From contig JBGTSP010000001.1 in the NCBI GenBank assembly GCA_041940205.1, positions 245 to 64,244 of the forward strand: DNA of 64,000 nt, in the 5' to 3' direction. Below are positions 7,281 to 26,264 of this stretch, one piece after another. The stretch comes from Alphaproteobacteria bacterium (lineage in GTDB: Bacteria > Pseudomonadota > Alphaproteobacteria > GCA-2731375). A program made the position numbers and the translations under genes. The first letter of the stretch is position 1. Each line of letters begins with the position of its first letter. The notes below the pieces were generated by a model, which saw nothing but the letters and a program-made list of their open reading frames with translations, did not search any database and was not told where the DNA came from.

Positions 7281-8420
7281 TCAGCCCTCGAGCGCGGCCG
7301 CGGCCGAGCGCAGGTAATCCGGGTGGTGGTGGCCATAGACCCGCTCGACCAGGCGGGTGTCGCGATGGCCGAGAAAGCCGGCGACGTCCCACAGGTTGAC
7401 GCCGCGCTGAGCCATCCAGGTCGCGGCCGTGTGGCGCAGCACGTGCGGCGAGACGCCCTCGAGGCCGGCCGCCGCGGCCGCACCGCGGATCCCCGTCTTG
7501 ACGTCCCGGATCGGCCGGCCGGCATACTCGATCACGTGATCGCTGATCGCGCCGCGCAGGGCTTCCTCGAGATGCCGGCGGGCGGTGTCCGTCATCGGCA
7601 CCAGCGACCGTCGCTTCGCGCCGAGGCGTCGCACCGGCGGCTGCAAGTCGATCCGGCCGGCCGTGAAGTCCACGCGGTCCCAGGTCAGCTCCAGCAGGGC
7701 TTCCTTGCGCGCGGCCGTGTGCAACGCCAGCACGATGAACAGCCGGACATGCGGGCTGCGGGCGGCCGCGACCAGGCGATCGGCCTCCTCGCGGGTGAGC
7801 CAGCGATCACGCGCCGCCGACTCGGGCGGGAGCTGCAGGGGGTCGACCCGGTCGTACAAGGGCGTGCCGTCGGGGTTCCTGAGAGCGCCTCCCAGGGCGA
7901 TCGCGGCGTTCAGGGTGGCGAGCTCCTTCCGGATGCTGCCATCGGCTCTGCCGATGCGCCTGCGGGCCGCCAGGTAAGCATCGCCGCGCTCGGGGGTGAC
8001 CTGGGTCGGCCGCAGGGCCGCGAAGGTTTTCTCGAGCGCACGGAAGGCATAGTCGATCCGCTGCACGGCCCGGATCGGCTGCTCGCGTCGCCGGCGGACA
8101 AGGGTCAGCAGCGCGAGGGCGCGGTCCGTGCGCGCGCTGCCGTAGACCTTGCGCATGTCGGCGGTCACGGTCTCGACCTGGCCGGGGTCGCGGCCGGCCA
8201 GCGAGCGCTCGAGGCGGTAGAGGGCGATCAGCTCTCCGACGGTGGGGACGGGCGCCTGATCTGCCTGAAGGTCGGAAACTGCGTCACAGAATTCGGCGAA
8301 CCGCCGTTCGGCTTCCTCCCTGGCGGCGGCGTCGACGCCGAGGCTTCGGCGGACGGTGCGTCCTTCGACGGTGTCGGTGGCGCACCAGGCGCCGCGGTAG
8401 AGCTTGAGCCGCCAGGCCAT
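7281..8420 (-). CDS. int: Phage tyrosine integrase
   Basis: 379 aa; C-terminal catalytic region HVLRHTAATWMAQRGVNLWDVAGFLGHRDTRLVERVYGH; adjacent to tRNA/attL. Confidence 0.9.
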   Translation of the reverse strand: MAWRLKLYRGAWCATDTVEGRTVRRSLGVDAAAREEAERRFAEFCDAVSDLQADQAPVPTVGELIALYRLERSLAGRDPGQVETVTADMRKVYGSARTDRALALLTLVRRRREQPIRAVQRIDYAFRALEKTFAALRPTQVTPERGDAYLAARRRIGRADGSIRKELATLNAAIALGGALRNPDGTPLYDRVDPLQLPPESAARDRWLTREEADRLVAAARSPHVRLFIVLALHTAARKEALLELTWDRVDFTAGRIDLQPPVRRLGAKRRSLVPMTDTARRHLEEALRGAISDHVIEYAGRPIRDVKTGIRGAAAAAGLEGVSPHVLRHTAATWMAQRGVNLWDVAGFLGHRDTRLVERVYGHHHPDYLRSAAAALEG

Positions 8421-9930: not shown

Positions 9931-10525
9931 CGCCTCGCATTTCGACCGGTACCTTGATGGCGTCGAGGTGGGCGAACTCGCGAGGGTGCGGCAGGATGAT
10001 GAGCGTTTTTTCCGAGAACCATACGCCCGCGTTGGCGAACACACCCCAGTGCGCTTTGTAAATTGGTGCGCCCCTGGTGTGGCGGACCCAGATCTTTGTT
10101 CCGTCCCGCGGCGCTGCCTGGATAGGTTGCCAAGGTAAGCCGCTTCTATCGTCCTTCCCCTGTTCCGAGTGTCGATGCGCAACGGCCTCGCTCGCGAGCT
10201 GGTTGTTCTTGGCCGTCAAGCGATTCTCGACGGCCCTTTGAAGGTCGATCTGGCCTTCGGGACACGTGGTGGCCATCCGAAGTGCGCAGATCACCATGTC
10301 GGCAACGTATTTCTCGACGTCGCCGCGTACCGTGAGATTGGCCCAGTCCACGCCCCCGTGTTCGGCATCGTTGAGGATCGAGGCCAGTTTTCCACCAGCC
10401 TTGTGGACGTGCAGAAGAGCGTGCGCGAAGTCCTTGTGGGTCATGGGCGTCGCCCTGAAGTCCCGGTGATAGTGGCCCGTCCAGGGCAGGCCGCTCTGCA
10501 GCTCGCGGATGGTCCTGTCGCTCAT
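9917..10525 (-). CDS. Hypothetical phage protein, C-terminal DUF551-like domain
   Basis: 202 aa; C-terminus LPWQPIQAAPRDGTKIWVRHTRGAPIYKAHW resembles DUF551 of prophage proteins; overlaps neighbours. Confidence 0.4.
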   Translation of the reverse strand: MSDRTIRELQSGLPWTGHYHRDFRATPMTHKDFAHALLHVHKAGGKLASILNDAEHGGVDWANLTVRGDVEKYVADMVICALRMATTCPEGQIDLQRAVENRLTAKNNQLASEAVAHRHSEQGKDDRSGLPWQPIQAAPRDGTKIWVRHTRGAPIYKAHWGVFANAGVWFSEKTLIILPHPREFAHLDAIKVPVEMRGDADG

Positions 10526-12465
10526 TCTGATACCTCCTCGTTCTTAATCTCCCCGAGCCGGGCCCGAACCGTCTTTTCGTCGGCGAAGTGCAGCTCCGGC
10601 GGGATCCAGCCCTGGCGGCGGTCGGGGTGGTCGAGGATCCACTTGACCGCGTCGCCCTTCTTCATCGCGTCGATCTCCGCCTTGGTGGTGGCGGGATCGA
10701 GGCCGTCGATCGCCTGGATGGCGACGCGGGCGAGCTGGGGCTTCGTCAGGGCCTTGAGATAGGCCTCCTCTAGAGTCCAGTCCCCGGGCTGCACCGCGGT
10801 GTCCGCCACGCGGGCGATCGCCGGGATCAGCGGATGGTCGCCCAGGCCCGTGTCGTGGCCGTTCCAGCTGCCGACCTGGGTGGCGATCAGTGCCGCGAAG
10901 ATCCTGTGCAGGCGCTCCTCGTCTTCCAGCAGCCAGTCGAGGCAGGCGCTCCAGTCGAAGCCGCTCTTGAAGTCACCGTGATAGCGATCCGCATCGAGCC
11001 GGCAGGCCTCCGGCATCTGCTCGAGGAGGTCGATCAGGATCTGCTGCTGCAGCAGTGTGGGCTGGTGGTCGAAGCCGCCGATCGGGTCTTTCAGCAGCCG
11101 CACCGGGCTGCGGCGCAGCAGGCCGATCACCACCAGGGCCACCGGCAGCGCGCGGTTTTCGGTGCGGGCGAGTTCGAGCTGCAGGGTCCAGGTCTTGGTG
11201 TTGCGGGCCTGCTTCTGCAGGGCCTTGGGGATCGGATCCTTCGGCCTTGCGTCCGCCTTGACGGTGGCGGTGGCGTCGGCGCGCTTCGGCTTGATCAGGC
11301 CGGTGTGGACCTTCAGCATTCGGAAGCGGTTCAGCTCGATGATGACGCCGGCACCATCGGCCTTCTTGCCCTTCTCGAATTCTCCTGCCCAAAACGTCGA
11401 GTATGTCTCGGCGCCGTCGCGGATCTCCACCCAGGCCCAGCCCGCCGCGCGAAGCTCGCCGGCCTGTCGTTCGGCCTCGGCGACCTGTGCCAGTTTGAAG
11501 GCGTCGGCGTCCTGAAAATACTCGTTGCCGTCGCCGTCGTTGAAGATCTCCAGGCCGGATTCAATGACGTCGAAGGCCGCGCGATCGACGGGGATCATGT
11601 CTCCGGTGATCATCTCGGTGACATCCTTCTCGTCGACGTTCTGGCCCCACTCCCTTTGGGTCACGATCCGGTCGAGCACATCCGCCTGTCGCGTCTCGGG
11701 TGCTCGCGCGAGGGCGCGGGCCTGGGCCAGGTTGATCTCTCCGGTCGCTAGGGCCTGCTTCGCCGGATCGGACAGGCCGCGGCAGAGCTGCACGCGCTGC
11801 TGTACCCAGCGACGGGTGCGGCCGATCTTCCTGGCGAGGTCCTCGGTGTCGACGCCGGCGTCGACCGCCGCCGCGAGCGCCGCGGCCTCCTCCAGCGGGG
11901 GCACTTCCTCGCGCTGCAGGTTCTCCACGATCGCCATCATCACGACGTCCTGATCGCTCAGGTCCTCGATCCGGGCAGGCACCGGCCAGGTCTCGTCGAC
12001 CGTCTCGCCACGGACGTCGCCGGCGGCCTCGGCCAGGAAGCACAGGGCGCGGAAGCGCCTGGCGCCGGCGACGATCTCGAAACGCCCGGGCTCGGCCGCG
12101 GGGCGCAACAGCAGGTTCTGCAGCAGGCCTTGGGCCGCGATGCTGGCGGCGAGCTGCTCGATGCTGTCCGGATCGAAGCTCTTGCGGGGATTGAGCGGGC
12201 ACTCGACCAGGTCCCGCAGTATCACGCCGGCCGTCCCGTCCGCGGTCGCGGCGGGGACGGCCGGCGTTGGATCCACGCCGATCAGGGCGGCCGCGGTGAT
12301 GTCGAGCGCACCGGCGAGCTTCTCGACCTGTTCCAGGGTGGGGGAGACTGCGCCATCGCGGATCCGTCGGATCGTGTCCCGCGAGACGCCGGATGTTTTC
12401 TCGAGCGCGCGGTTGCTGAGGCTCTGCGCGTCCATCGTGCCGGCGAGGGTTGTGGCGATCGTCAT
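10522..12465 (-). CDS. HTH(XRE)-ParB/Srx N-domain fusion protein with about 350-aa uncharacterised C-terminal region
   Basis: Start chosen at ATG 12465 preceded by GGAGG; HTH LSNRALEKTSGVSRDTIRRIRDG...; ParB box FDPDSIEQLAASIAAQGLLQNLLLRP...FEIVAGARRFRA. Confidence 0.7.
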   Translation of the reverse strand: MTIATTLAGTMDAQSLSNRALEKTSGVSRDTIRRIRDGAVSPTLEQVEKLAGALDITAAALIGVDPTPAVPAATADGTAGVILRDLVECPLNPRKSFDPDSIEQLAASIAAQGLLQNLLLRPAAEPGRFEIVAGARRFRALCFLAEAAGDVRGETVDETWPVPARIEDLSDQDVVMMAIVENLQREEVPPLEEAAALAAAVDAGVDTEDLARKIGRTRRWVQQRVQLCRGLSDPAKQALATGEINLAQARALARAPETRQADVLDRIVTQREWGQNVDEKDVTEMITGDMIPVDRAAFDVIESGLEIFNDGDGNEYFQDADAFKLAQVAEAERQAGELRAAGWAWVEIRDGAETYSTFWAGEFEKGKKADGAGVIIELNRFRMLKVHTGLIKPKRADATATVKADARPKDPIPKALQKQARNTKTWTLQLELARTENRALPVALVVIGLLRRSPVRLLKDPIGGFDHQPTLLQQQILIDLLEQMPEACRLDADRYHGDFKSGFDWSACLDWLLEDEERLHRIFAALIATQVGSWNGHDTGLGDHPLIPAIARVADTAVQPGDWTLEEAYLKALTKPQLARVAIQAIDGLDPATTKAEIDAMKKGDAVKWILDHPDRRQGWIPPELHFADEKTVRARLGEIKNEEVSE

Positions 12466-12869
12466 CGGGTGTCCTCCAGGCTGGTGGTGTCCGGCATCCG
12501 GATCTGTTGCTGGAAAATCCGCACGGCGCTGCACCCGTGCCTGGTGATCCGCACGAGGGTGCGGTCGGTCCGCGCGAACGGGCCGCCACCGATCCGGGCG
12601 GCCCAGCCGCGCCGCTCGCAGGCGGCCAGGGCGTCGGGATCGCAGGTCGCCAGCGGCAGCGGACCCATCCAGAGGGCGTCGAGCAGGTCCTCGACGCCGG
12701 GATCGGGCTGTTCGCCCGGCCAGGGCAGGTGCGGGACCGGCGCGGGCGGGCGAAACAGGCGAACGGTGTTCGCCAGGGACGGCCGCCCGCTCACGCGCCT
12801 GGTTCCGCATTGCCGGGCGGCAGGCCGCCCAGGCCGAGGTCGATGCGCACCCGGGAAGCGCCGGGCCAC
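12462..12869 (-). CDS. Hypothetical protein, GTG start with AGGAGG SD
   Basis: 135-aa frame; strong SD 10 nt upstream of GTG at 12869; stop overlaps ParB-like start (ATGA); overlaps 3' end of upstream gene by 79 bp so uncertain. Confidence 0.3.
   Translation of the reverse strand: MARRFPGAHRPRPGRPAARQCGTRRVSGRPSLANTVRLFRPPAPVPHLPWPGEQPDPGVEDLLDALWMGPLPLATCDPDALAACERRGWAARIGGGPFARTDRTLVRITRHGCSAVRIFQQQIRMPDTTSLEDTR
12768..12784. repeat. GC palindrome family copy 2, variant GGCGAACggtGTTCGCC
   Basis: 7-bp arms with 3-nt centre; at 3' end of 12791..13375 gene. Confidence 0.5.
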
Positions 12870-14681: not shown

Positions 14682-14698
14682 GGCGAACGCCGTTCGCC
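14682..14698. repeat. GC palindrome family copy 3 GGCGAACGCCGTTCGCC
   Basis: Perfect 17-bp palindrome abutting cI stop codon. Confidence 0.6.
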
Positions 14699-15408
14699 TA
14701 GTCGGCCGATGTCATCGGGCCCAGGGGACGCTCCGGCCGGTAGGAGGCGATCACCAGGGCGATCACGTGGATGTCTTCAATCGTTGAAAAACCGCCGTTT
14801 TCGTCGTGGTTGGGATCCGGCCGGGGCAGCCGGATCGGCACCCGGTGCTCTGGATTCGATGATCGCGGGGAGAGCCAGAACTTGCCGTACTTGTCGACCA
14901 CGAACTCCTTCACCGTGGCCTCGTATTCGCCCAGGTTGTTGCGGCGCTGCACGATCACCCGCTCGCCCGGTTCGGGCCAGCGCTCCAGCTCCACCATCGG
15001 CACGACGATCAGGATCGTGCCGTCGGGATACACCTCGTCCATCGAATCGCCGCGCACGAGGAAGCCGGAGACCGTGTGGTGCGCCCAGCGATCGTCCACC
15101 GGGGCGGCGATCGCAAAGCGCTCGAGCACCGGCCATTCCACGGCCTCGGCCCAGTGGCCGGCCTGGACGGCGCCGCGCACGGTGATCGATCTCATCCCCG
15201 GCAAGTCGTAAACCGGGTCCTCCTCCTTCAGGAGGTCCGCCTGACGGACGCCCAAGGCAGGAGCGATTCGTTTCAGCCAGTCGACGCTGAGTCGAATCGC
15301 GCCCGTTTCGAGCTTTTGAATTTGCGCATCGGTCGTTCCGACGGCTTCGGCCAGTTTGGCAAGCGTGAGGCCGCGTTCCTTGCGCCACTCGCGGATTCGG
15401 TTGTCCAT
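14698..15408 (-). CDS. cI: CI-like prophage repressor: XRE HTH plus S24 (LexA/UmuD-like) self-cleaving peptidase domain
   Basis: MDNRIREWRKERGLTLAKLAEAVGTTDAQIQKLETG HTH; C-terminal S24 fold with Ser (GDSM) and Lys (KEFVV...K) dyad region; start trimmed from ORF 14698..15621. Confidence 0.85.
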   Translation of the reverse strand: MDNRIREWRKERGLTLAKLAEAVGTTDAQIQKLETGAIRLSVDWLKRIAPALGVRQADLLKEEDPVYDLPGMRSITVRGAVQAGHWAEAVEWPVLERFAIAAPVDDRWAHHTVSGFLVRGDSMDEVYPDGTILIVVPMVELERWPEPGERVIVQRRNNLGEYEATVKEFVVDKYGKFWLSPRSSNPEHRVPIRLPRPDPNHDENGGFSTIEDIHVIALVIASYRPERPLGPMTSAD

Positions 15409-15502
15409 TTCGGCATTATTTCCGACATGGAAATCAATGGGATACGCCCGGAAAACATTTTCTCCTTGACTTAAAATGTCTTGAGAGGAAATTTTTTGAG
15501 CC
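15409..15502. promoter_or_regulatory. Divergent cI/cro switch region with AT-rich inverted repeats (candidate operators) and -35-like TTGACT
   Basis: atttccGACATggaaat, gGAAAAcaTTTTCtcc, TTGACTtaaaatgtcTTGAGAgg between divergent cI and cro starts; GC far below flanks. Confidence 0.5.
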
Positions 15503-15760
15503 ATGACGTTACGCGACTGGCTCTCCGCCCGCTCCTGGAAACAGGTCGACCTCCGGCGCGCGCTCGCCGACGGGGGCTGCACCCTTTCAGCATCAACCAT
15601 CAATCGCCTCGTTGCCGGCACCCGTCTGCCGAACCTGGATACGGCGGCGGCGATCGCGCGGGTGACCCGGGGTGCGGTGATGCCGAACGATTTCTACGGC
15701 CTGCAGCCGGCCGGCCGGCCGGTCGCGCAACCCCCGACCCGAAACGAGGAGGCCGCCTGA
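15503..15760 (+). CDS. cro: Cro/YdaS-like HTH regulator
   Basis: 85 aa, divergent from cI; YdaS/Cro-like pattern QVDLRRALADGGCTLSASTINRLVAGTRLPNLDTAAAIARVTRGAV. Confidence 0.6.
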   Translation: MTLRDWLSARSWKQVDLRRALADGGCTLSASTINRLVAGTRLPNLDTAAAIARVTRGAVMPNDFYGLQPAGRPVAQPPTRNEEAA

Positions 15761-16311
15761 TGGGCAAGGTCACATCCATGCCGACACCTTCGCGCGCAAA
15801 GGCGGGTGGTGTCTCCCGGAACGGTGGCGGCGGGTTCCGGGGGCAGAAGCCCCGCGATCCCGGCGTGCCGAAAGACGCGATCGCCCGCCTGGTCGATGCC
15901 TGCGGCGGCGTCGGCCCGGTGCAGCGCATCCTGGGCAGCGGCAAGACGGTGACCTACGCCTGGACCGACCAGCAGGCGCCGGACGAGATCAGCTTCGCGC
16001 GCGTCGCCGCGCTCGAGGAAGCCTGCCGCACGGGGATCGCCGCGGCCTACCTGGCGCAGCTCGCCGGCGGGATCTACGTGCCGGCCGCGCCGGGCAATGC
16101 CGAGGGCGCGCTGCCGGCCTGCCTCGCCAGCCTGGGCAAGGAGATCGCGGACGTGTTCGCCCGCGGGGCGGAGGCCCTGGCGGACGGCGTGTGCGAACCG
16201 CACGAGGCCCGCGCCCTGCTGCGCGAGGTGCTGGAGGCGAACGGCGCACTCGGCGCGCTGATCGCCGCGCTCAACGAGATCGCCTATCCGGAAACGGAGG
16301 ACGCGGGATGA
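15760..16311 (+). CDS. CII-like phage regulatory protein (putative)
   Basis: Position after cro, start overlaps cro stop (TGATG); helical DNA-binding-like core DAIARLVDACGGVGPVQRILGSGKTVTYAW...ISFARVAALEEA. Confidence 0.4.
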   Translation: MGKVTSMPTPSRAKAGGVSRNGGGGFRGQKPRDPGVPKDAIARLVDACGGVGPVQRILGSGKTVTYAWTDQQAPDEISFARVAALEEACRTGIAAAYLAQLAGGIYVPAAPGNAEGALPACLASLGKEIADVFARGAEALADGVCEPHEARALLREVLEANGALGALIAALNEIAYPETEDAG

Positions 16312-16433
16312 AGCGAACCCCTGGCCTCCGCCAGCTGCTCGACTGGATCGGCTCGGCCGTCTTGTTTCTGCTGGCGGTCCTGATCCTGTGGGGCACCGAT
16401 TTCCGCCTCGCCGGCCTGGTGCTGCAGCCATGA
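16308..16433 (+). CDS. Small hydrophobic peptide (41 aa)
   Basis: ATGA-coupled to both neighbours; single TM LLDWIGSAVLFLLAVLILWG. Confidence 0.3.
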   Translation: MKRTPGLRQLLDWIGSAVLFLLAVLILWGTDFRLAGLVLQP

Positions 16434-17038
16434 GCGAGGCGCGGGCGCTCGACGCCTGGGATCGCGCCCTGATCGGCACGGCCACCGGCCGGCTGGTGCA
16501 TCCGCTCCGGCTTTGCGAGGACGACATCCAGCTTCAGGACATCGTTGTCGCCCTGTCCCACACCGGGCGGTTCGCGGGTCACACGCGGGTCTTCTGGTCC
16601 GTCCTGCAGCATTCGATCGAGGTGTCGATCGAGGTGGAGCGTCTCGGCGGCGATGCGACGGACCAGATATGGGCCCTGCTTCACGATGCCGGCGAGGCCT
16701 ACCTGCTGGACATCCCCAGCCCGATCAAGCCGTTGCTGATGTTTGCGGCGCCCGGGCAGGGGGTGCCGGTCGAGTATGTCGAAGCGGAATTCGGAATCCT
16801 GCAACGCGTCGCGGAGCGCTTCGGCTTGCCCTTCCCGCTGCCGGGCATCGTGCACGAGGCCGACCATGCCGTGACCCAGGCCGAGGCGCTGCAGTTCATG
16901 CCGGGGGCGGAACGCTGGGCGGATGCCCAGGCGGCCGAACCGATCCGGACGCTTGAAGCGGCCGATCCGGAGACCGTGCGGTATCGCTTCCGGGCCCGCA
17001 TGGAAGAGCTCGCCTACAAGCGGATGGGTGGCGAATGA
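16430..17038 (+). CDS. HD-domain phosphohydrolase (YfbR-like 5'-nucleotidase family)
   Basis: H...HD motif region HSIEVS...LLHDAGEAYLLDIPSPIK; ATGA overlap upstream. Confidence 0.6.
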   Translation: MSEARALDAWDRALIGTATGRLVHPLRLCEDDIQLQDIVVALSHTGRFAGHTRVFWSVLQHSIEVSIEVERLGGDATDQIWALLHDAGEAYLLDIPSPIKPLLMFAAPGQGVPVEYVEAEFGILQRVAERFGLPFPLPGIVHEADHAVTQAEALQFMPGAERWADAQAAEPIRTLEAADPETVRYRFRARMEELAYKRMGGE

Positions 17039-17247
17039 GCACGAAACCCTGGGCCGCCATCCTCAACGGGCAGTTCGTCGGCCGGGCCTCGACCCGGCAG
17101 GCGGCGATGAACCTGATCGATCGGCCGTACCAGGCCGGTGCCGGCCGGATCGAACGGTCGCGCACGGGCGAGACCTGGCGGCGGCGCGGCGGGAGCTGGT
17201 TCCGCGTGGCCGCGTCGGCCGGTGTGAAGACGGGGGTGGCGGCATGA
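17035..17247 (+). CDS. Hypothetical small phage protein
   Basis: 70 aa, ATGA-coupled on both sides. Confidence 0.35.
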   Translation: MSTKPWAAILNGQFVGRASTRQAAMNLIDRPYQAGAGRIERSRTGETWRRRGGSWFRVAASAGVKTGVAA

Positions 17248-18491
17248 AACACCTGCTCTGCCTGCTGGGCCTGCACGACTGGCGGCTGATTCCTCACGGG
17301 CATCCGGGCGAATGCCTGTTCCTGTGCCCCCGATGTGGCGAGGCAGTGCGATTGTCACCGCCGCTCGACACGGCGATCGACGCGTCGATGGCGGCCGTAC
17401 TGCCGGCGCCGGCGCCCGCGCGTCGCCGGCCGCGGCTGAGCGTGGCGGTCGAACGGTCGGGACTGCGGCCGGCGGTAACCGCGGCGATGCCGGATGCGAA
17501 GAGGGCGCGGGCGATCGCGGGTGTGGAAGATTTCGCGCAGGCATTTGGCGGGCCGGCTCGCGCGCCGGTGCGCGGGCGCGACGAAGATTCGCGGGCGGCG
17601 TCGTCCGGAGGGACAGGACCCTCTCCGGATGCGTCCGCGGAGGCGGCCGTATCCGGGACACCGCGTCCTTCCGACACGGATCCGGTCGCCTCGGACATGC
17701 CGCCGGAGCGGGATAGGCCGCTGCCGCCAAAGCGCGCGGCGCTGCTGCGGTTGCTGATCGAGGCGCGGGGGCCGGATGGTATCTGTCGGGCGACCAACCG
17801 CGAACTCGGCAATGCGCTCGGCTGCTCAAACGGCGGTGTTGTTAAGCCTCTGGCCAAGCTGGAAACCGACGGCTGGATCGCGCGGACAGGCTCGACGAAG
17901 GCGCGGGAGATCCGCGTACTGTACAGCCCGCAAGCCCAAGTGCCGGCATCGCCGCCTGCGGCAGAACCGGAGCCGGAACCCGCGATCGCCGGGAGTGATG
18001 ACGAGGACCCACACCCGGTCCCGCTGTCACCGATGCTAGAGAACCTGCTGAACGAGATCATCTCGTTGACGGACGAGTCAGGGACGGCCCGTCCGACGAA
18101 TGCTGCGCTTGCCTCGGCTTTGGAGATGGAAGCCAACGCCGTGTCGGCGCGTTTGAAAATTCTCGACGACCGGGGCTATGTGGGTCGATCGCACGATGGC
18201 GAAGGCCGCGCGATCCATGTTCTCAGGTGGCCTGACGGTGAGCCGTTCGTGGCCGACGCCGAAGACCAGGACGATGAAGCGGAAGACGTCGTCGCGGAAC
18301 CCGAGCCGGAAGACGAGACGGACGGTGCCGAGGAGCTTCAGGCGCCTTCGAAGGTACGCGATCGGAACTGCCTGACCTGTGGAAAGGTCTTTCGATCGGA
18401 AGGACCGCACAACCGCATGTGCGGATCGTGTCGCCACAAGTCCGAAGACTCCGCCGGCGATCCCCATGTTCTGCACGGTGGGCGGCGATGA
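17244..18491 (+). CDS. Hypothetical DNA-binding protein: N-terminal Cys4 cluster, two winged-helix-like modules, C-terminal zinc ribbon (candidate replication initiator/regulator)
   Basis: CLFLCPRCGEAV; repeats LLRLLIEARGPDGICRATNRELGNALGCSNGGVVKPLAKLETDGWI and LLNEIISLTDESGTARPTNAALASALEMEANAVSARLKILDDRGYV; CLTCGKVF...CGSCRHK. Confidence 0.5.
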   Translation: MKHLLCLLGLHDWRLIPHGHPGECLFLCPRCGEAVRLSPPLDTAIDASMAAVLPAPAPARRRPRLSVAVERSGLRPAVTAAMPDAKRARAIAGVEDFAQAFGGPARAPVRGRDEDSRAASSGGTGPSPDASAEAAVSGTPRPSDTDPVASDMPPERDRPLPPKRAALLRLLIEARGPDGICRATNRELGNALGCSNGGVVKPLAKLETDGWIARTGSTKAREIRVLYSPQAQVPASPPAAEPEPEPAIAGSDDEDPHPVPLSPMLENLLNEIISLTDESGTARPTNAALASALEMEANAVSARLKILDDRGYVGRSHDGEGRAIHVLRWPDGEPFVADAEDQDDEAEDVVAEPEPEDETDGAEELQAPSKVRDRNCLTCGKVFRSEGPHNRMCGSCRHKSEDSAGDPHVLHGGRR

Positions 18492-19162
18492 CCCGGCAGA
18501 CCCGATCGGGCCGCGGCCAGCCCAGCGAGCCGGGCAGGGGCGGCCGTCCGAAATCCGATTTCTACGCGACGGACCCGGCGTACAGCAGCGCGCTGTTCGA
18601 GGCGCTCGCCTGGCGAAACCGGTTGCCGAAGAGCCTGTGGGAACCGGCCTGCGGCGACGGTGCGCTCGCCCGGGTGGCGGAGGCCTATGGCGTGACTGTG
18701 ATCGCCAGCAACCTGTACGGCCAGGGCTACGGCGAGGTCGGCGTCGATTTCTTGAAAGTCGAGAGCCTGGCCTGGCGATCGACGACGATCATCACCAATC
18801 CGCCCTGGTCGGGCCGGCGGGACAAGAACTTGCCGCTGCGCTTCCTGGAGCATGCCCAGCGGCTGGGGGCGAAGGAGATCTGGCTGCTGCTGCCGCTGGG
18901 CTGGATTGCCAGCGACTTCCGGCGGGAGCGGGTGTTCCCGGGCCTGGCCGATGTCTGGATCGTCAACAGCCGCGCGCCGATGTGGCCCTATGGCGTGGCG
19001 CCGCCGGATGCGCGGCCGAACCCGACGATGACGGAAGACTGCGCCTGGTTCGGCTGGCACGCAGGCGCGCGGTTCAGCGGGCCGCGGCTGGCTCTGATCG
19101 ATCCCGCGCCGGCCTATCAGGGTCGCGCCGGCGAACGGCGTTCGTCGGTAGAGGGGGCGTGA
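18488..19162 (+). CDS. Orphan N6-adenine DNA methyltransferase
   Basis: SAM motif I EPACGDG and catalytic motif IV NPPW; no adjacent restriction enzyme. Confidence 0.7.
   Translation: MTRQTRSGRGQPSEPGRGGRPKSDFYATDPAYSSALFEALAWRNRLPKSLWEPACGDGALARVAEAYGVTVIASNLYGQGYGEVGVDFLKVESLAWRSTTIITNPPWSGRRDKNLPLRFLEHAQRLGAKEIWLLLPLGWIASDFRRERVFPGLADVWIVNSRAPMWPYGVAPPDARPNPTMTEDCAWFGWHAGARFSGPRLALIDPAPAYQGRAGERRSSVEGA
19129..19149. repeat. GC palindrome family copy 4 ccgGCGAACGGCGTTCGtcgg
   Basis: Near-perfect 21-bp palindrome inside MTase 3' end, about 15 bp before stop. Confidence 0.6.
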
Positions 19163-19365
19163 TGAGCGGGTCGGACGAAACCACCTGGCGCCCATGTCCT
19201 GGTTCTCCAACCTCGTTCGTCGAGGTTGAGCTTCTGCCGGCCGCGACGGCGCCATGGCGCGCGACACCCGAACCGATTGAGATCGTGACGGTCGATCTCG
19301 GCAGCCAGGGCCTGGTCGCGGTGAAGGTGCTTCACAGCCTTCCCCGAACGGAGCGTGCTCGATGA
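19162..19365 (+). CDS. Hypothetical small phage protein
   Basis: 68 aa; start overlaps MTase stop (TGATG). Confidence 0.3.
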   Translation: MSGSDETTWRPCPGSPTSFVEVELLPAATAPWRATPEPIEIVTVDLGSQGLVAVKVLHSLPRTERAR

Positions 19366-19367
19366 CG

Positions 19368-19802
19368 TCAGGCGGCCTCGAATGTCGGCACCAGGCGCCG
19401 ACCCAGAACGGCGAGCGCGTCCTCGAGGCTGCCGATCTTGGTGGCGTGCCGCGGATCCAGCATGCGCCGAACCAGGGCCTCGTCGATCTCGAGACGTGCG
19501 GCAAGCGCGACCTTGGACAGGCCGTCCTCGCGCATCGCTTCGTAGAGCGCCGCCTTGGCCGCGATCGTGGCGCCCGGCGAGACCGTCGGGCGGCCGTCCG
19601 CCGGCGAAGGATGGGGGATGTCCTGCCGGTCGGCGATGCGGCCGGCCAGCACCTCGGCCAGGCAATCGGCTGCCATGGCAAGCGCATGGGCTTCGTCGTC
19701 GCCACAGGTCACGCCTTCCGGCAGGTCCGGGAAGGTGACGGTGAAGCCGCCGTCATCGGGCTCCGGATGGAGGGTGACGGGATAGGTGAAGGTGCGGGTC
19801 AT
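19368..19802 (-). CDS. hicB: HicB-family antitoxin
   Basis: N-terminal RNase-H-like HicB fold (TFTYPVTLHPEPDDGGFTVTFPDLPEGVTCGDDEAHAL) plus C-terminal DNA-binding region (LSKVALAARLEIDEALVRRML). Confidence 0.8.
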   Translation of the reverse strand: MTRTFTYPVTLHPEPDDGGFTVTFPDLPEGVTCGDDEAHALAMAADCLAEVLAGRIADRQDIPHPSPADGRPTVSPGATIAAKAALYEAMREDGLSKVALAARLEIDEALVRRMLDPRHATKIGSLEDALAVLGRRLVPTFEAA

Positions 19803-19820
19803 GGTCTGGTCCTTCCGGGT

Positions 19821-20027
19821 CTAGAGGTCCGCGTCGTCAAGGCCAAGCTGGGCGAGGATCGCTTTCAGCGTACCGGTCTTCAGCTGGCCGGACGGCACGG
19901 TGGCCTTGCGGTCGTTCCATGTGAACGTCTCGTGCGAGCCCTTGCCCTGCTTCGTGGAGACGGAGAAGTCCGCCCCGGTCTTTCGGGCGATCTTGCGAAG
20001 GCGGCGCTTGAGCTGTTCCCTGTTCAT
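19821..20027 (-). CDS. hicA: HicA-family mRNA interferase toxin
   Basis: 68 aa; HicA core GADFSVSTKQGKGSHETFTW...TVPSGQLKTGTLKAILAQLGL; immediately upstream of hicB. Confidence 0.8.
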   Translation of the reverse strand: MNREQLKRRLRKIARKTGADFSVSTKQGKGSHETFTWNDRKATVPSGQLKTGTLKAILAQLGLDDADL

Positions 20028-20102
20028 GCATTCTATATCGGACGTTTTTGTCCGATTTCAAGGGACGGATCGGATTTTTTTATCCGATTTTTCGATCCCT
20101 GC

Positions 20103-20119
20103 GGCGAACGGCGTTCGCC
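20103..20119. repeat. GC palindrome family copy 5 GGCGAACGGCGTTCGCC
   Basis: Perfect 17-bp palindrome 12 bp upstream of CHC2 primase start. Confidence 0.6.
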
Positions 20120-20131
20120 GGCGGGGGCGCG

Positions 20132-21148
20132 ATGAACCGGATTCCCGTTGGCGTGATCGACCAGGCGCGTGCCGTCGACCTTGCGGCTCTCGTGAGCGAG
20201 CGCGTGGCCCTGAAACAGCGCGGCCGGGAATATTCCGGCCTCTGCCCGTTCCACGAGGAGCGAACGCCCAGCTTCACGGTGCGTCCTGACAAGGGCTTCT
20301 GGCACTGTTTCGGCTGCGGCGCGCATGGCGGGGCGATCGACTGGGTGATGCACTGGGAAGGCTTGTCCTTCCCGCAGGCGGTCGAGCGGCTGTCAGGCTG
20401 GCGTCCTGATCCGAACCGGCCCGTGCGGAAGGAGCGGGCCCGGCCGGTGCGCGATCGGGATCGCGAGAACCGGATGATCGCCCTCGCGCGGGAATTCGTG
20501 CGCGCCGCACGGCCGCTGCGATCGGGCGATCCGGTCTGGCTCTATCTGCAGGACCGGGGGCTCGACCCCGAACGGTCCGGAGCATCGGTGGCGCTGCGGC
20601 ACCTGCCGGTGATGAAGATCTACGATGGCGGCCGGGACACCGGTCGCCGGGCGCCGGCGATGATCGGACCGGTGCGGAATGGACAGAGCGGGCGGATCGT
20701 CGCCGTGCACGTCACCTTCCTGGCGCTCGAGGCCGGTCGGTGGGTCAAGGCCGGACCGGCGCGGGCGCCCTCGCCGCGGATCATCCTGGGCCCGAAGGCG
20801 GGGGGCGCGGTGCGCCTGGGCCCGCCGCTGAGCCGGATCGACTATGCCGAAGGTCTGGAAACCGCGCTGTCGATCGTCCAGGCCCATGGCGGGCCGGACC
20901 GGATCTCGCTGTGGGCCTGTCTGACGGCCGAGAACCTGATGAAACAACCCGTGCAGCCGGGGCAGCGCGAAAGCCGGTTCTGGATGGACCTGGACCGCCC
21001 GCAGGACCGCCTCGGCGGGATCGGCGCCGGCGAGTATCACGCGTGCCGCGCGGCCGAGGCGCATGCGGCGGAAGGCCTTGCCGCCTCGCTCTGCCGGCCG
21101 CCGCGGCGCGGCGACTTCAACGACGTACTGCAGGGGTCGGCGGCATGA
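20132..21148 (+). CDS. DNA primase, CHC2 zinc-finger type
   Basis: CPFHEERTPSF...WHCFGCGAHGGAIDWV zinc finger; start trimmed to MNRIPV from ORF 20048..21148. Confidence 0.8.
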   Translation: MNRIPVGVIDQARAVDLAALVSERVALKQRGREYSGLCPFHEERTPSFTVRPDKGFWHCFGCGAHGGAIDWVMHWEGLSFPQAVERLSGWRPDPNRPVRKERARPVRDRDRENRMIALAREFVRAARPLRSGDPVWLYLQDRGLDPERSGASVALRHLPVMKIYDGGRDTGRRAPAMIGPVRNGQSGRIVAVHVTFLALEAGRWVKAGPARAPSPRIILGPKAGGAVRLGPPLSRIDYAEGLETALSIVQAHGGPDRISLWACLTAENLMKQPVQPGQRESRFWMDLDRPQDRLGGIGAGEYHACRAAEAHAAEGLAASLCRPPRRGDFNDVLQGSAA

Positions 21149-22629
21149 GCGGAGAAGACGATATCCGCGCGGCCGGCGAGACGGGGACACCGATTGCCGC
21201 GCCCGAACCGCTGCCCGAGGACCTGGCGCAGCTGTCCCGCAACGATCTGGGTAATGCCGAGCGGCTGATCCAGCGGCGGGGGCGGGATCTGCTGCACAAC
21301 CACTCGCTGGGCTGGATCGTCTGGGACGGCCGCCGGTGGCAGATGGATTCCTCCGCCAAGGCCTTCTCTCCGGCGGCGCGACTGGTTGCGCACGACGTGG
21401 CCGAGAGAATCGGCGAGGAAGTCCAGCACGTCGACGAGAATCAGAGGCGGGCGCATGCCAAGTGGGCGCTCGACAGCGGCAACAATGGCCGGCTGAACAA
21501 CATGCTCGAGTGCGCCGCGCCGCGGCTGCAGGTGAAGCCGGACGAGCTCGACGTCTCGCCGGATCTGCTCAATGTCGAAAACGGTACCCTCGAGCTCGGC
21601 CTGGATGCCGACGATCGGGCCACGGTGCGCCTGGCGCCGCATGCTCGGGCTGACCGGATCACCCACGTCGCGCCCGTGCGATACGATCCCGATGCGCCGC
21701 GGCCGGAGCGGTTCTGGTCGTTCTACCAGGAGATCCTGCCCGACCACGAGATCGGCCTGTTCGTGCAGCGGTGGCTCGGCTACTGCCTGACCGGCCATGC
21801 CAGCGAGCAGAAGATCGCCTGCTTCTGGGGTGGCGGCGCCAACGGGAAGTCGACACTGCTGTCGATCGTGCGACGGCTGATGGGCGATTACACCCGGACG
21901 CTGGAGTTCAGCTCTCTTGCCGCCAACGATCGCCGGAACGGCAGCCAGCCGACCCCGGACCTGGCGCGCCTGCTGAACGCGCGGATCGTCACGGCCGCGG
22001 AGCCGGACAAGAACACGAAGCTCTCCGAGAGCATGATCAAGTCGCAGACCGGCGGCGAGCCGATCCTGGTGCGGCCGCTCTTCCTGGCACCGTTCGAGTT
22101 CGTGCCGACCTACAAGCTGATCCTCAGTTTCAACAACAAGCCGGAGATCCGGGCCCAGGATCACGGCACCTGGCGGCGCGTGCTGCTGGTGCCGTTCACC
22201 CAGACGATTCCCGAACACAAGCGCATCGAGGACCTCGACCTGCAGCTGGTGGCCGAGGAAGGGCCGGGAATCCTCAACTGGTTGCTGGAGGGGTGGCAGC
22301 TCTGGCGCGACTTTGGCCTCGATCCACCCGAGGCGGTGCGCGCAGCAACAGCCGAGTATCAGCGGGAGAGCGATCCCCTGGCCGACTGGATCGGCGATCG
22401 CCTGGTCGCTCGGCCCGGCGCCAACGCGCCGGCGAAGCAGCTGCGCGACGACTACGTCAACTGGGCCGGTGAGAACGGCCAGGAGCCGATCAACGCGACC
22501 CGGTGGGGCAAGCTGATGGCGGAGCGCTATCGCAAGTACCGCTCGAACGGGGTGAAGTACGAGGGCGTGGCGATCGCCGGCCTGTCGGCCGAGGGCGAGG
22601 CCCTGGCCCCCCGCGGCCCCCCGGTCTGA
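21145..22629 (+). CDS. Phage/plasmid primase P4-family C-terminal domain, D5-type NTPase/helicase
   Basis: Walker A FWGGGANGKST, Walker B-like region, P4 alpha/D5 architecture; ATGA overlap with CHC2 primase. Confidence 0.8.
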   Translation: MSGEDDIRAAGETGTPIAAPEPLPEDLAQLSRNDLGNAERLIQRRGRDLLHNHSLGWIVWDGRRWQMDSSAKAFSPAARLVAHDVAERIGEEVQHVDENQRRAHAKWALDSGNNGRLNNMLECAAPRLQVKPDELDVSPDLLNVENGTLELGLDADDRATVRLAPHARADRITHVAPVRYDPDAPRPERFWSFYQEILPDHEIGLFVQRWLGYCLTGHASEQKIACFWGGGANGKSTLLSIVRRLMGDYTRTLEFSSLAANDRRNGSQPTPDLARLLNARIVTAAEPDKNTKLSESMIKSQTGGEPILVRPLFLAPFEFVPTYKLILSFNNKPEIRAQDHGTWRRVLLVPFTQTIPEHKRIEDLDLQLVAEEGPGILNWLLEGWQLWRDFGLDPPEAVRAATAEYQRESDPLADWIGDRLVARPGANAPAKQLRDDYVNWAGENGQEPINATRWGKLMAERYRKYRSNGVKYEGVAIAGLSAEGEALAPRGPPV

Positions 22630-22639
22630 AGGCCTTCAG

Positions 22640-22800
22640 GGAAGAAGTCGTCCAACCCGTCCGCAACCCGTCCGTCTGGAATGGCAGAAATCTGCCGATC
22701 CGGACCAGTCCGGACCAGTTGGAACAGTTTTCGCCATACCTCACACATGCGCAGGCGGGTGTGTGAGTAACACAACAACTAGTCCAACTAGTCCAAGTGG
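22640..22800. repeat. Low-GC intergenic region with three short tandem duplications and an inverted repeat (candidate ori iterons / late promoter)
   Basis: caacccgtccg x2, ccggaccagt x2, caactagtcc x2 (approx), cacacaTGCGCAGGCGGGtgtgtg hairpin. Confidence 0.5.
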
Positions 22801-22809
22801 TCAGAACCC

Positions 22810-23448
22810 ATGAGATATCAGAGCCTTAAGCCCGGACCAGTCGCCTCCTCGGCCGTCCGTCAGGCGTCCGCCGATACCAGGCGGCCGATCGATATCGAGG
22901 ACCTGCTGATCTGGACCTATGCGGACCAGCGCGTCGCTGCATGCACGGCCTACGGGCTGTCACCGTCGATCACCAGCACGGCCGTGATCGAGCGCGTCGG
23001 CACCCTGGGCTGTCGTGTCGACGGTGGGGGAGCAGGCAGCGGCAAGGCGCATCCCGATGCGGTCACGATCGACTGCGCCCTGATGGCGACCGCCGCGCGC
23101 GGGCTGCTGATCCACTATGCCTGCCTCCGGGGGCGTCCGGACATTCTCCAGTGCCGGGTGATCCCGGACCGCTGTCCGCGAAGCGGCCGGGTGGGCAGGC
23201 TCTATGACGACAGTCGCCACTGGATCGGTTGTCATGTGCGCCTGACCGCGGCGCCGGAAGCTGTCGAGAGGTCGAAGCAGATCTATACCGACTGGTGGAC
23301 AGGACTTCGCTCGGCCCGCCTTCTGCTGGCCGATTCGCGTCTACGCGACTTCATGATTACCGGCCCCCGGGCATCTCGCACGCCATGGAGCCGGCCGGTA
23401 TCCCGCGTTTTGCCTACGCTTCAGGCCGATCAGATCATCGACGCTTGA
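22810..23448 (+). CDS. Hypothetical phage protein (position of late regulator / packaging accessory)
   Basis: 212-aa ORF after low-GC gap, upstream of terminase; no recognisable domain. Confidence 0.45.
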   Translation: MRYQSLKPGPVASSAVRQASADTRRPIDIEDLLIWTYADQRVAACTAYGLSPSITSTAVIERVGTLGCRVDGGGAGSGKAHPDAVTIDCALMATAARGLLIHYACLRGRPDILQCRVIPDRCPRSGRVGRLYDDSRHWIGCHVRLTAAPEAVERSKQIYTDWWTGLRSARLLLADSRLRDFMITGPRASRTPWSRPVSRVLPTLQADQIIDA

Positions 23449-23709
23449 CCGTTTGCGAAACGCTGCCTACGAATCTGCTACTGCTCACGCGAGGTGCGCC
23501 CGGACCGAGAAATCGGCCCGGGCGCTTTCGTTTGGACATGTGCACCACAGACCCCGGCGGCTGCTGTTCGTCAGTCGCCGGGGGCCAAGGCAAACGGGCC
23601 AACGGGTCCTTCCACGACCCTCGCGCGCGATACGGTGCGGTAGCGCGGCGCGTGCGTGTCACCCCGGGATTTTTCCCCCGCGGGATTGTTGTCATGAATG
23701 GGAATCGGA

Positions 23710-24271
23710 GATGTCGCGCGTCGTCAACATGACGGAGCTTTCGGAAGTCGTGGGCCTGAGCCCCAACACGCTCAGCGCGATTTTCCGGAAGCACGACGAC
23801 GCCCCGATCATTCAGCGGGGATCGAACGGGGTTCCCTACGAGATCGATCTCGACGCCTTCAGCACCTGGCTGCAGGCGAACCGGGAACGGGTCGACCAGG
23901 CCGAGGACGAGCGGCGCGAGCAGCTCTCGATGTGGGCGAAGGAATTCGCCGGCGCCGAGGAGGGTGAAGCGGCGGGCATGAAACCGGCTGAACGCCGGGC
24001 CCTCGCCGAGGCCGTTCGCGCCGAGGACTATGTCCGGCAGAAGCGCGGCCAGCTGGTCGATCGCGCCGCCCTGGAAGCCGACCTGCAGATGGCGATCATC
24101 GAGCTGCGCACCCAGCTGCTGCAGATGCCGGTGCAGCTGGCAAAGCGGTACGACCTGTCGCGGGAAGCGCGGCTGGAGCTGGAGCGGATGATCGCAGACC
24201 AGCTCAACGGCCTGGCGGACCGCCTTGGCACGGCCGGGTTCTACTCGGACGGCAATGCAGCCGCAGCCTGA
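23710..24271 (+). CDS. Terminase small subunit, lambda Nu1-like (N-terminal HTH)
   Basis: GGAG RBS; N-terminus MSRVVNMTELSEVVGLSPNTLSAIFRKHD...GSNGVPYEIDLDAFSTWL parallels Nu1; directly upstream of TerL. Confidence 0.6.
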
Positions 24272-26264
24272 ACCGGCTCCGTTCTATCCTGCCGCGGCGG
24301 TCGTGGCGGATGCGTTCGCTCTGCTCGAGGTGCCCGAGCGACTGAGCGTCAGCGAGGCGGCGGAGCGATACCGTGTCCTGGAGAACCGCGGCGGCGGCGT
24401 CTCCGGGCCCTGGACGTTCGACCTGCTGCCGTTCCTGCGGCGGCCGATGGACTGTCTTGGACCGGACAACAGCTACGCCACGGTGGCGGTGATCGGACCT
24501 GCCCAGACGGGCAAGTCGTCAATCGGCGACAACTGGCTGCTCTACTCGGCGATTTGCGATCCGGCGGACATGCTGATGCTGGGGCCGGACAAGGCGATCA
24601 TGCGGGACTACTCGGTCTCGCAGATCGACCGCATGGTGAGATCGTGCCCGGAGCTGCGCCGCCGTCTGCGGCCGGTGCCGAGCGCGGACAACATCTTCTC
24701 GAAGCTGTTCCAGGGGATGGCGTTCTTCATCGCCTGGCCGGTGGCGAGCCAGTTGCGGGCGCGACCGGTACCGCGGTGCCGGATCGATGATTACGACGCG
24801 GTGCCAGAGGACATCGATGGCGAGGGCAACGCCCTGGTGCTGATGTCCGGCCGACAGACGACGTTCGAGGGATTCGAGAAGACCTACGTGAACTCCTCGC
24901 CGGCGCTTGGCGCCGACCGGGGGATCGAGGCTGTCGTGGCCTCGGGCACGGACGAGCGATGGACGGTGCGCTGCCTGCAGTGCGATCACCCGTTCGCGCT
25001 CGACTGGGATCACGTGAGTTACCACGCAACCGGGACGCCGGAAGAGGCTGCCGAGAGCGTGTGCGTGGTCTGCCCGGACTGCGGTCACCCGCATGCACCG
25101 GGCGACAAGCGGAAGCTGATGGCCCGTGGCGCCTATGTCGGCGCCGGCCAGGAGATGCAGCCGGACGGCAGGATCGTCGGGGAACTTCGTCGCACGTCGA
25201 TCGCGTCGTTCCGCTGGGACGGCCTTATCGGTCTCGCAAGCTGGGGTCGCCTGGCCGAGCTGGCGCGTCGGGCCGAGCAGACGTTCGAGGCGACGCAGGA
25301 CGAGGACGAGCTGCGGGCCTTCATGACCGCGCGAGTCGGCCGGAACTTCGTCTCCCGCCTGGCGGGGGCGAAGCCGGTCACGTCGGATGCCCTGGTCGCC
25401 CGCGCCGAGGCGGGCGGTCATGTTCCGGGTGAGGTGCCGGATTGGGCGATCTGCCTGACGGCGGCCGTCGACGTCCAGGCCAACCGGTTCGAGGTCATGG
25501 TCATGGCCTGGGGACCGGGCCTGGAAGCGGCAATCGTCGATCGGTTTCCGATCCTGGCCCTCGAGGACGGAACGGAAGCGATGGATCCCGCCGGCCGGGT
25601 CGAGCACTGGGCGGTGCTGCTGCCCAAGGTGATGCTGAGGCGCTACCCGGTGGCCGGTCAGCCGCACCGGTCGCTCGCGATCGTCAACACGGCGATCGAC
25701 ACTGGCGGACTGGAAGGCGTGACCGACAACGCCTTCAGCTTCTGGCACACGGTCTATGGCAGCCGAGGGCGCGCCGGCCTGACCTCGCTGACGCTGGTGA
25801 AGGGCGGCAGCAATCCGAGGGGCCGGATGCTGCCGCCGCCGACCGTCGACACGAAGCGGCGACTGAAGGGGCATCCGGACCCCGAGCTGTTCGTGCCGAA
25901 CGTGAACCGGGTGAAGGACATGTTGAACGGCCGTCTCCACCGCGAGGAGCCGGGCCCGCTGTTCCTTCACCTGCCGCGGGGCATGGAGCCCACGCATATC
26001 GCGGAACTGACGGCCGAGCAGAAGGTGAACGGGCTCTGGGTCCGCAAACCGGGCGAGGCCAACGAGACATGGGATCTGTGGGTCTACAACGCCGTGGCGC
26101 TGATGCGCCATGGCGCGTCCGACCCGACTCTGAACTGGGTGCCTGACTGGGCCCGGCCGCAAGACAAGCCGGCCGGCGAACCGCGTTCGCCGGAAATCGA
26201 GGTCAAACAGGTGCGCGCGGGGCCGCGGCGGAAGCTGCGGACACGGGTGCGAGGGAGACGCTGA
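24255..26264 (+). CDS. Terminase large subunit, lambda gpA family
   Basis: 669 aa; gpA-family layout with ATPase Walker A GPAQTGKS and C-terminal nuclease; start trimmed to MQPQPE. Confidence 0.9.
   Translation: MQPQPEPAPFYPAAAVVADAFALLEVPERLSVSEAAERYRVLENRGGGVSGPWTFDLLPFLRRPMDCLGPDNSYATVAVIGPAQTGKSSIGDNWLLYSAICDPADMLMLGPDKAIMRDYSVSQIDRMVRSCPELRRRLRPVPSADNIFSKLFQGMAFFIAWPVASQLRARPVPRCRIDDYDAVPEDIDGEGNALVLMSGRQTTFEGFEKTYVNSSPALGADRGIEAVVASGTDERWTVRCLQCDHPFALDWDHVSYHATGTPEEAAESVCVVCPDCGHPHAPGDKRKLMARGAYVGAGQEMQPDGRIVGELRRTSIASFRWDGLIGLASWGRLAELARRAEQTFEATQDEDELRAFMTARVGRNFVSRLAGAKPVTSDALVARAEAGGHVPGEVPDWAICLTAAVDVQANRFEVMVMAWGPGLEAAIVDRFPILALEDGTEAMDPAGRVEHWAVLLPKVMLRRYPVAGQPHRSLAIVNTAIDTGGLEGVTDNAFSFWHTVYGSRGRAGLTSLTLVKGGSNPRGRMLPPPTVDTKRRLKGHPDPELFVPNVNRVKDMLNGRLHREEPGPLFLHLPRGMEPTHIAELTAEQKVNGLWVRKPGEANETWDLWVYNAVALMRHGASDPTLNWVPDWARPQDKPAGEPRSPEIEVKQVRAGPRRKLRTRVRGRR
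26174..26194. repeat. GC palindrome family copy 6, variant ccGGCGAACcgcGTTCGCCgg
   Basis: 9-bp arms around CGC; in TerL 3' end about 70 bp before stop. Confidence 0.55.

Follow-up and report, generated by a model that had tools for sequence, protein, structure and literature searches.

The replication origins of Staphylococcus aureus pathogenicity islands (SaPIs) and of phage-inducible chromosomal islands (PICIs) consist of 6–12 iterons directly 3′ of rep, laid out in opposed sets around an AT-rich centre and recognized through a winged helix (PMC9371898, PMC6092414). The P4-family helicase likewise binds short origin repeats through a C-terminal winged helix, then unwinds and primes (PMC4234260). 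The locus considered here lies in a 64 kb stretch of alphaproteobacterial DNA (contig JBGTSP010000001.1; the whole stretch is called the window below) that carries a complete temperate prophage of ~40 kb. Directly after the prophage gene for a superfamily 3 (SF3) helicase of the D5/P4 family is a non-coding gap at 22630–22809. Because its ~10 iterons around a hairpin match the origin layout known from virus satellites, this gap is, on purely comparative grounds, probably the replication origin of the prophage. By analogy, its type would be that of a self-loading SF3 helicase plus downstream iterons, known from SaPIs and PICIs and related to P4. This is a useful annotation of a known origin type in a new host element, and not a new kind of element. 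The features of the module, in window coordinates, are listed below.

20048–21148, plus strand: DnaG-type primase, the 'pri' of the module, with CHC2 zinc ribbon, DUF7146 and Toprim_3 (Pfam and PHROG matches; gene call in the identical contig L003)
21145–22629, plus strand: SF3 helicase of the D5/P4 family (D5_N and DUF5906; Pfam and PHROG), 494 aa, the proposed initiator
22630–22809, no strand: non-coding gap, the proposed replication origin (repeats, hairpin, GC dip, alignment)
22645–22673, plus strand: iteron array 1, AAGTCGTCC, AACCCGTCC, AACCCGTCC (starts 22645, 22654, 22665)
22674–22705, no strand: spacer with inverted repeat GTCTGGAATGGCAGA / TCTGCCGATCCGGAC, centre of the head-to-head arrays 1 and 2, ~48 % GC (DNA fold of the gap)
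22702–22729, minus strand: iteron array 2, GACTGGTCC, AACTGGTCC, AACTGTTCC (22702, 22712, 22721)
22740–22767, no strand: near-perfect 28 nt palindrome with alternating purine–pyrimidine tracts (CACACATGCGCA ... TGTGTG), candidate core or melting element
22777–22803, plus strand: iteron array 3, AACTAGTCC, AACTAGTCC, AAGTGGTCA (starts 22777, 22786, 22795; the last with 2 mismatches), in the lowest-GC stretch
22810–23448, plus strand: open reading frame ORF212, 212 aa, phrog_9306
22834–22842, minus strand: single reverse iteron GACTGGTCC, within the 5′ end of ORF212, which is not conserved

Tandem Repeats Finder returned three perfect tandem repeats in the gap: CAACCCGTCCG (2.0 copies, 22653–22674), TCCGGACCAG (2.1 copies, 22699–22719) and CAACTAGTC (2.3 copies, 22776–22796). 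An earlier reading of this DNA from its letters alone (the sequence-only reading) had placed three duplications at these positions and called them different; they are where it put them, but all three are copies of one degenerate 9-mer, AACNNGTCC. The third duplication has a unit of 9 nt and not 10, so that the two 'caactagtcc' copies reported there share one base. In total there are ~10 copies of AACNNGTCC, spaced within arrays at 9–11 bp, about one helical turn. The first begins 16 nt past the helicase stop codon, and the repeats come within 6 nt of the ORF212 start codon. Their order is three forward, three reverse, the palindrome, three forward, and one reverse within ORF212.

The palindrome between arrays 2 and 3 has the arms CTCACACATGCGC / GCGGGTGTGTGAG and folds as single-stranded DNA at −9.5 kcal/mol (z = −2.8). 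It corresponds to a hairpin previously noted as cacaca-N12-tgtgtg, which is real and longer than had been stated. A 12 nt alternating purine–pyrimidine run in the gap is longer than expected from shuffles (p = 0.016). As the sequence-only reading had also observed, the gap is lower in GC than the flanking coding sequence, at 0.56 against 0.68 in the upstream 1.5 kb; the 40 nt minimum is 0.42, at 22759. A motif scan gave no convincing DnaA boxes, IHF sites or CcrM sites, and there is no Rfam match within the gap.

The clustering of repeats in the gap clearly exceeds chance. Perfect tandem duplications with units of 9–12 nt number nine in the 64 kb, and three of these fall inside the 180 nt gap; elsewhere no 180 nt window holds more than one. 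Among 5000 dinucleotide shuffles of the gap, 4996 contained no such duplication and 4 contained one. Exact matches to AACNNGTCC number 14 in the window, 5 of them in the gap, and matches with up to one mismatch number 212 across both strands. The interval 22645–22842 holds five exact copies and five with one mismatch, one of the ten being the opposite-strand reading of the copy at 22702. With up to one mismatch allowed, the densest 200 nt window of the 64 kb is this interval (10 matches, ~0.7 expected); all of the densest windows lie in the gap, and no second AACNNGTCC cluster was found in the 64 kb. The enrichment of AACNNGTCC is partly post hoc, since the motif was derived from the gap region itself, which does not apply to the tandem-duplication test. 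In contrast to the informative tandem-duplication test, a count of all exact k-mers did not make the gap stand out: its iterons are degenerate, and the background consists largely of GC-rich k-mers.

Conservation of the gap follows the arrays. The window and two related loci, L021 (helicase 49 % identical to that of the window) and L010 (~36 % in the C-terminal domain), align end to end across the gap with the three arrays in register. Columns invariant in all three sequences make up 43 of 84 positions in the arrays (15/29, 13/28 and 15/27 in arrays 1, 2 and 3, respectively) and 10 of 96 elsewhere, suggesting that the repeat arrays are under selection. Comparative alignment had been named in the sequence-only reading as a check, and in these homologous elements the repeats are indeed conserved. 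A closer relative, L015, whose ORF212 is 98 % identical, differs from the window by 1 mismatch in the 298 nt of 22617–22914, compared with 6 in 123 nt at the helicase 3′ end and 22 in the 639 nt of ORF212. Assembly GCA_041940885.1 (L003) contains an identical stretch (0 mismatches).

Relatives were gathered through ORF212 homologues, through helicase homologues and from cultured phages. For the ORF212 locus scan a broad alignment proved too diverse, and a smaller one was used; helicase scans for close relatives gave only 33–40 % matches in a genome contig collection and none in a viral contig collection. Thirteen elements with a non-coding gap after a D5/P4-type or related SF3 helicase were counted, and in all 13 the gap contains element-specific repeats of 6–10 nt. 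These are given below with the positions of alternating purine–pyrimidine tracts (CACA/CGCG/TGTG type) where listed; L007, a near-identical copy of L006 with the same layout, was not counted separately.

L004: GGTTAC; tract at 3858–3883
L006 (and L007): AACCCTCGC; tract at 3664–3678
L010: AACTGTCC
L011: GCGCTG
L013: CTGTGAG
L016: AAGGTCT; tract at 5181–5201
L017: ACTGTCCGGA; tract at 5125–5139
L018: ACTGAAC
L019: TTGGAGG
L020: GGGAGG; tract at ~4210–4235
L021: AACNNTCC
RcapNL (L022): GGGACG; tract at ~3331–3346
phi105: GTTACT

In these 13 relatives the gap begins at the helicase stop codon and is 160–540 bp long. The repeats occur in both orientations in 12 of them, L011 having forward copies only, and they mostly flank a core that is low in GC, alternating in purines and pyrimidines, or both. 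They are also nearly confined to the gap: all 12 copies of GGTTAC in L004 and all 11 copies of CTGTGAG in L013 are found there.

Across this set the repeats are strictly linked to the type of helicase. They are present in L016, RcapNL and phi105, which have no ORF212 homologue (RcapNL gp01 was checked and is not homologous), so ORF212 is not required for iterons. They stand beside differing packaging modules (gpA/DUF1441, or Terminase_4 with PF03354, with or without HNH), and in L010, L017 and L019 no terminase gene is found in the 2–3.5 kb of sequence downstream. Conversely, L012 and L014, which have an ORF212 homologue together with a DnaB-type helicase and a separate initiator, have no such repeat gap. 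The helicases of the two cultured phages, phi105 ORF11 and RcapNL gp64, are homologous to that of the window (34–36 % identity over ~90 % of the protein) and, as in the window, each is directly followed by inverted short repeats: GTTACT/AGTAAC sets around a ~60 nt AT-rich core in phi105, and GGGACG/CGTCCC sets with a 16 nt alternating purine–pyrimidine tract in RcapNL. In the record stretches examined for both phages, the gap carries no origin annotation. The annotated cohesive-end (cos) site of phi105 lies at the record ends, directly before the small terminase gene (terS), and the iteron gap is 5.2 kb and nine genes away; the repeats thus travel with the helicase and not with cos.

In 6 of the 10 gaps tested against shuffles the alternating purine–pyrimidine tract is significantly long. 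Besides the window, these are L004, L006, L016 and L017, where it spans 15–26 nt (p < 0.001), and L018, where it spans 10 nt (p = 0.046). By eye, L020, L021 and RcapNL have comparable tracts. No such tract was found in the tested gaps of L010, L011, L013 and L019. Where present, the tract might take the place of an AT-rich unwinding element or act alongside one.

One of the 13 relatives, L020, is a compact element on a 10.2 kb contig (Logan SRR30015103) that encodes, in this order, an integrase, an AlpA-like protein, a D5-type helicase and, beyond the repeat gap, an S78 protease and a capsid protein. The 541 bp gap contains GGGAGG iterons and a ~25 nt alternating purine–pyrimidine tract, and the contig looks like a PICI-like satellite with the same origin layout.

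The upstream gene had previously been described as a P4-type primase–helicase. The helicase part of that description holds, but the primase is a separate DnaG-type gene that precedes it; the primase open reading frame (to 21148) overlaps the start of the helicase frame (21145), and these are two genes. Sequence matches of the helicase in the PDB include African swine fever virus (ASFV) C962R (3.9e-15), SaPI5 PriRep5 (7ola, 3.6e-4), the poxvirus D5/E5 proteins and the RFX1 winged helix (0.23). An AlphaFold2 model (mean predicted local distance difference test, pLDDT, 93.6) shows residues 413–477 as a helix, a strand, two helices and a beta-hairpin; its best Foldseek matches are the D5-like helicases of ASFV and monkeypox virus. 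There is a weak RFX_DNA_binding match in the C-terminal region, and many helicase homologues (40–49 % identity) have Pox_D5 or RFX matches and are named 'phage/plasmid primase, P4 family'. Residues ~410–478 (nt ~22372–22578) are therefore predicted to form a C-terminal winged helix. An iteron origin beside a P4/D5-type helicase gene, as the sequence-only reading had proposed, is supported by every comparative test made, through the repeats in relatives, the alignment, this predicted fold and the SaPI/PICI layout. A fourth perfect short duplication, GGCCCCCCGC (1.9 copies, 22605–22623), lies in the helicase 3′ end, within the low-confidence C-terminal tail (residues 487–494); it does not fit the iteron motif.

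By analogy with the satellite systems, lytic replication of this full-size temperate prophage would start in the gap. Once the prophage is induced, its early operon would yield the DnaG-type primase and the D5/P4-family helicase, whose subunits would bind the 9 bp AACNNGTCC iterons through the C-terminal winged helix. The opposed triplet arrays may then nucleate hexamers on both sides of the low-GC palindromic core (~22674–22776). The duplex would be opened at this core without DnaA, the primase would prime, and the host polymerase would take over.

The order of primase, SF3 helicase-initiator and 3′ origin is the same as in the pri-rep-ori modules of SaPI1, SaPIbov1, SaPI5 (PriRep5) and Escherichia coli EcCICFT073. 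The C-terminal winged helix on the helicase, predicted in the window, appears to be shared, as are the opposed iteron sets, an iteron number within 6–12 and the lack of DnaA boxes; similarity of the window helicase to PriRep5 is weak but significant (7ola, E = 3.6e-4). The differences concern both the element and the details of the origin. Rather than a satellite, the window element is a complete prophage with genes for terminase, portal, S49 protease and major capsid as well as tail genes, among them a likely tape measure; it has the PICI origin type but does not belong to that element class. Its iterons are 9-mers, compared with penta- or hexamers, and form three arrays instead of two. The centre is a GC-containing alternating purine–pyrimidine palindrome in a stretch of 42–56 % GC, whereas that of SaPIs and PICIs is a clearly AT-rich block.

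P4 has two separate cis sites, ori and crr, with the same iterons. In the window there is a single repeat cluster, and no distant crr-like cis site was found in the 64 kb; the repeat sequence is also not that of P4. The alpha protein of P4 belongs to the same helicase family, and by analogy with it the winged helix of the window protein is predicted to bind repeats. However, alpha is a fused primase, helicase and origin-binding protein, while the window has separate primase and helicase genes.

The remaining features of the prophage, several of which bear on alternative readings of the gap, are as follows.

7281–8420, minus strand: integrase, adjoining tRNA-Val (7124–7200)
10522–12810, minus strand: ParB-like protein, 762 aa, with HTH_3, ParB_N and HTH_ParB domains, in the early-left prophage region
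14698–15621, minus strand: CI-like HTH/S24 repressor
17244–18491, called gene: winged helix-turn-helix (wHTH) protein with weak 'O-like' PHROG matches
19368–20027, minus strand: HicA/HicB toxin–antitoxin pair, sitting between replication genes on the opposite strand
23496–23537, plus strand: terminator-like hairpin with U-rich tail, end of the replication/ORF212 unit (folding)
23538–23710, no strand: second gap, directly 5′ of terS and separate from the proposed origin
23711–24271, plus strand: small terminase, terS (DUF1441), the true start of the packaging module
24225–26264: large terminase, lambda-family gpA

The gpA gene is followed by genes for a gpW-like adaptor, a lambda-family portal, an S49 protease and the capsid protein. 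A 1189 aa frame in the tail region of the prophage has no family match and is likely the tape measure.

A lambda O-type origin also combines iterons with a low-GC region and a phage initiator, and the wHTH protein with its weak 'O-like' matches invites this comparison. The window repeats, however, are intergenic and follow the helicase gene, and the wHTH gene lacks iterons and a GC dip. An origin inside the wHTH gene, the other location considered by the sequence-only reading, was rejected; across 16300–20000 no repeat family exceeds two copies and GC does not dip.

ORF212 had been taken for the first gene of the packaging region. It belongs to the replication module instead, and packaging starts at 23711. 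The family (phrog_9306; at least 339 clusters at 50 % identity) is uncharacterized, and its conserved motifs are DIExLLxW, HPDAE, RPDW and TGPxAPxxPW. A confident AlphaFold model of ORF212 (pLDDT 84.6) has no significant structural match in the PDB or BFVD, and the protein has no Pfam match. Members usually stand at the 3′ end of phage replication modules, behind SF3 or DnaB-type helicases, and the variable 5′ end of their genes often overlaps iterons, as seen in L008 and L009. A hairpin at 23496–23525 after ORF212, found by folding alone, has an RNA folding energy of −33.4 kcal/mol (z = −4.8). Homology with L015 stops just past the hairpin region (23496–23537), beyond which L015 has an HNH endonuclease gene, marking a mosaic junction. 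The second gap, of 173 nt, contains a hairpin at 23552–23583 and a direct repeat, CCCCGGGATTTTT / CCGCGGGATTGTT, at 23662–23690; promoter and terminator scans returned nothing in either gap (22630–22809 and 23538–23710). Also within the second gap, at 23592–23609, are two adjacent iteron-like 9-mers, AAACGGGCC-AACGGGTCC, one of them an exact AACNNGTCC match; the pair could be chance or a weak secondary site.

Several observations weigh against reading the gap as an origin. The core is only moderately low in GC (42–56 %, in a genome of 68 %) and not truly AT-rich, and the cultured relative RR1-A has no gap at all after its helicase. When the recognition helix of the winged helix was compared with the iteron for covariation in eight sequences, the four ACTG-type loci shared a Thr; this residue is missing from L016 and L019, yet L006 has it too. 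The 'O-like' wHTH protein of the prophage could instead be the real iteron binder. The GenBank record of RcapNL places a 26 nt cohesive overhang within the repeat region, embedded among the same kind of repeats with more copies beyond it, and four short metagenomic contigs end inside the equivalent gap (L005, L008 and L009 start there at nt 1, and L021 ends there at nt 3354). Given this overhang and these contig ends, a packaging site could share the region in some relatives. These ends could be true virion ends or assembly breaks at tandem repeats.

Such ends are what would be expected if the gap were a cos region in which concatemers are cut, with the repeats serving as binding sites of the small terminase like the R sites of lambda cosB. 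The large terminase is of the lambda gpA family and the phage is therefore probably a cos packager, which is why a packaging role had to be tested; the gap moreover has the replication genes on one side and the packaging part of the genome on the other. Yet a lambda cos site lies directly 5′ of terS, its terminase-binding repeats being on the terS side of the nick, whereas here ORF212, the strong terminator-like hairpin, the mosaic junction and the second gap intervene before 23711. The second gap, directly 5′ of terS, is more likely than 22630–22809 to hold both cos and the late promoter. Nor does the repeat layout follow packaging genes, being kept across three terminase types and in the loci with no terminase gene nearby, and phi105 keeps its annotated cos well apart from its iteron gap. 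The 10–12 copies in alternating triplets are also unlike the lambda cosB pattern, which counts against a cos role. As to the ends themselves, tandem repeats alone can break short-read assemblies, and the status of the RcapNL ends is contradictory, since a later survey lists this phage as circularly permuted (PMC8601537) in conflict with its cohesive-end annotation. A cos region at 22630–22809 is thus considered unlikely.

The gap could alternatively be a transcriptional control region, a promoter or operator for ORF212 or the late genes at which the repeats bind a regulator, with replication starting elsewhere. There is no terminator between the helicase gene and ORF212, the repeats almost reach the ORF212 start codon with one copy inside its 5′ end, and origins often overlap promoters, so that a regulatory side-effect is plausible. 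However, no sigma-70-like promoter or terminator was detected in 22400–23000, in a scan limited to promoters of the sigma-70-like kind. L016, RcapNL and phi105 retain the repeats with an unrelated gene next to them, and the ORF212 homologues of L012 and L014 have none upstream. Because a terminator follows ORF212, the gap does not head the late operon, and the late promoter or activator site offered by the sequence-only reading is weakened accordingly: ORF212 ends at the terminator-like hairpin, the mosaic junction follows, and packaging begins only at 23711. A purely regulatory role appears improbable. A partition site, centromere-like and bound by the ParB-like protein during a plasmid-prophage stage, was considered as well; the prophage does encode a 762 aa protein with ParB_N and HTH_ParB domains, and centromeres are often repeat arrays. 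Against this, the integrase adjoining tRNA-Val marks the element as an integrated prophage, no ParA was found among the genes examined, and the ParB-like gene lies on the opposite strand at a distance of 10 kb. Nothing else points to a centromere. Relatives keep their repeats beside the helicase, and no separate partition protein was seen among the genes scanned beside the gaps; in L010 a ParB_N–methylase fusion is encoded downstream of the gap. A partition role is highly improbable.

Read as an origin, the gap supplies this prophage of a high-GC bacterium with an annotation that can be tested, and origins of alphaproteobacterial phages have rarely been mapped. The pri-rep-iteron layout is not limited to satellites: it is also found behind the homologous helicases of complete phages and prophages. 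A literature search, incomplete in coverage, found no paper on such an origin in complete phages from this group. Phage origins could be predicted by a simple rule, namely to look for an array of short repeats directly behind a D5/P4-type helicase gene. The helicase–iteron gap may further be no hallmark of PICIs but the type example of an origin module that is widespread among complete temperate phages, with hosts ranging from Alphaproteobacteria to Bacillus. In about half of the cases examined the core of such a module would be a long alternating purine–pyrimidine tract with a tendency to form cruciforms or Z-DNA, which would accompany or replace the AT-rich element. It would usually be coupled to the orphan-fold ORF212 family, with a 5′ end overlapping the iterons and perhaps a new origin-associated factor, and in some members, such as RcapNL, would share its region with the cohesive-end site. 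Taken as a whole, this wider proposal is tentative and rather doubtful.

Upstream of the module, the palindrome ATCGGA-N7-TCCGAT occurs twice, at 20037–20058 and 20069–20090, in the divergent region, which extends over the annotated start of the primase gene. The two copies are 32 bp apart and, judged from the sequence, look like an operator pair. The early region of phi105, like that of the window, has a HicB-like gene.

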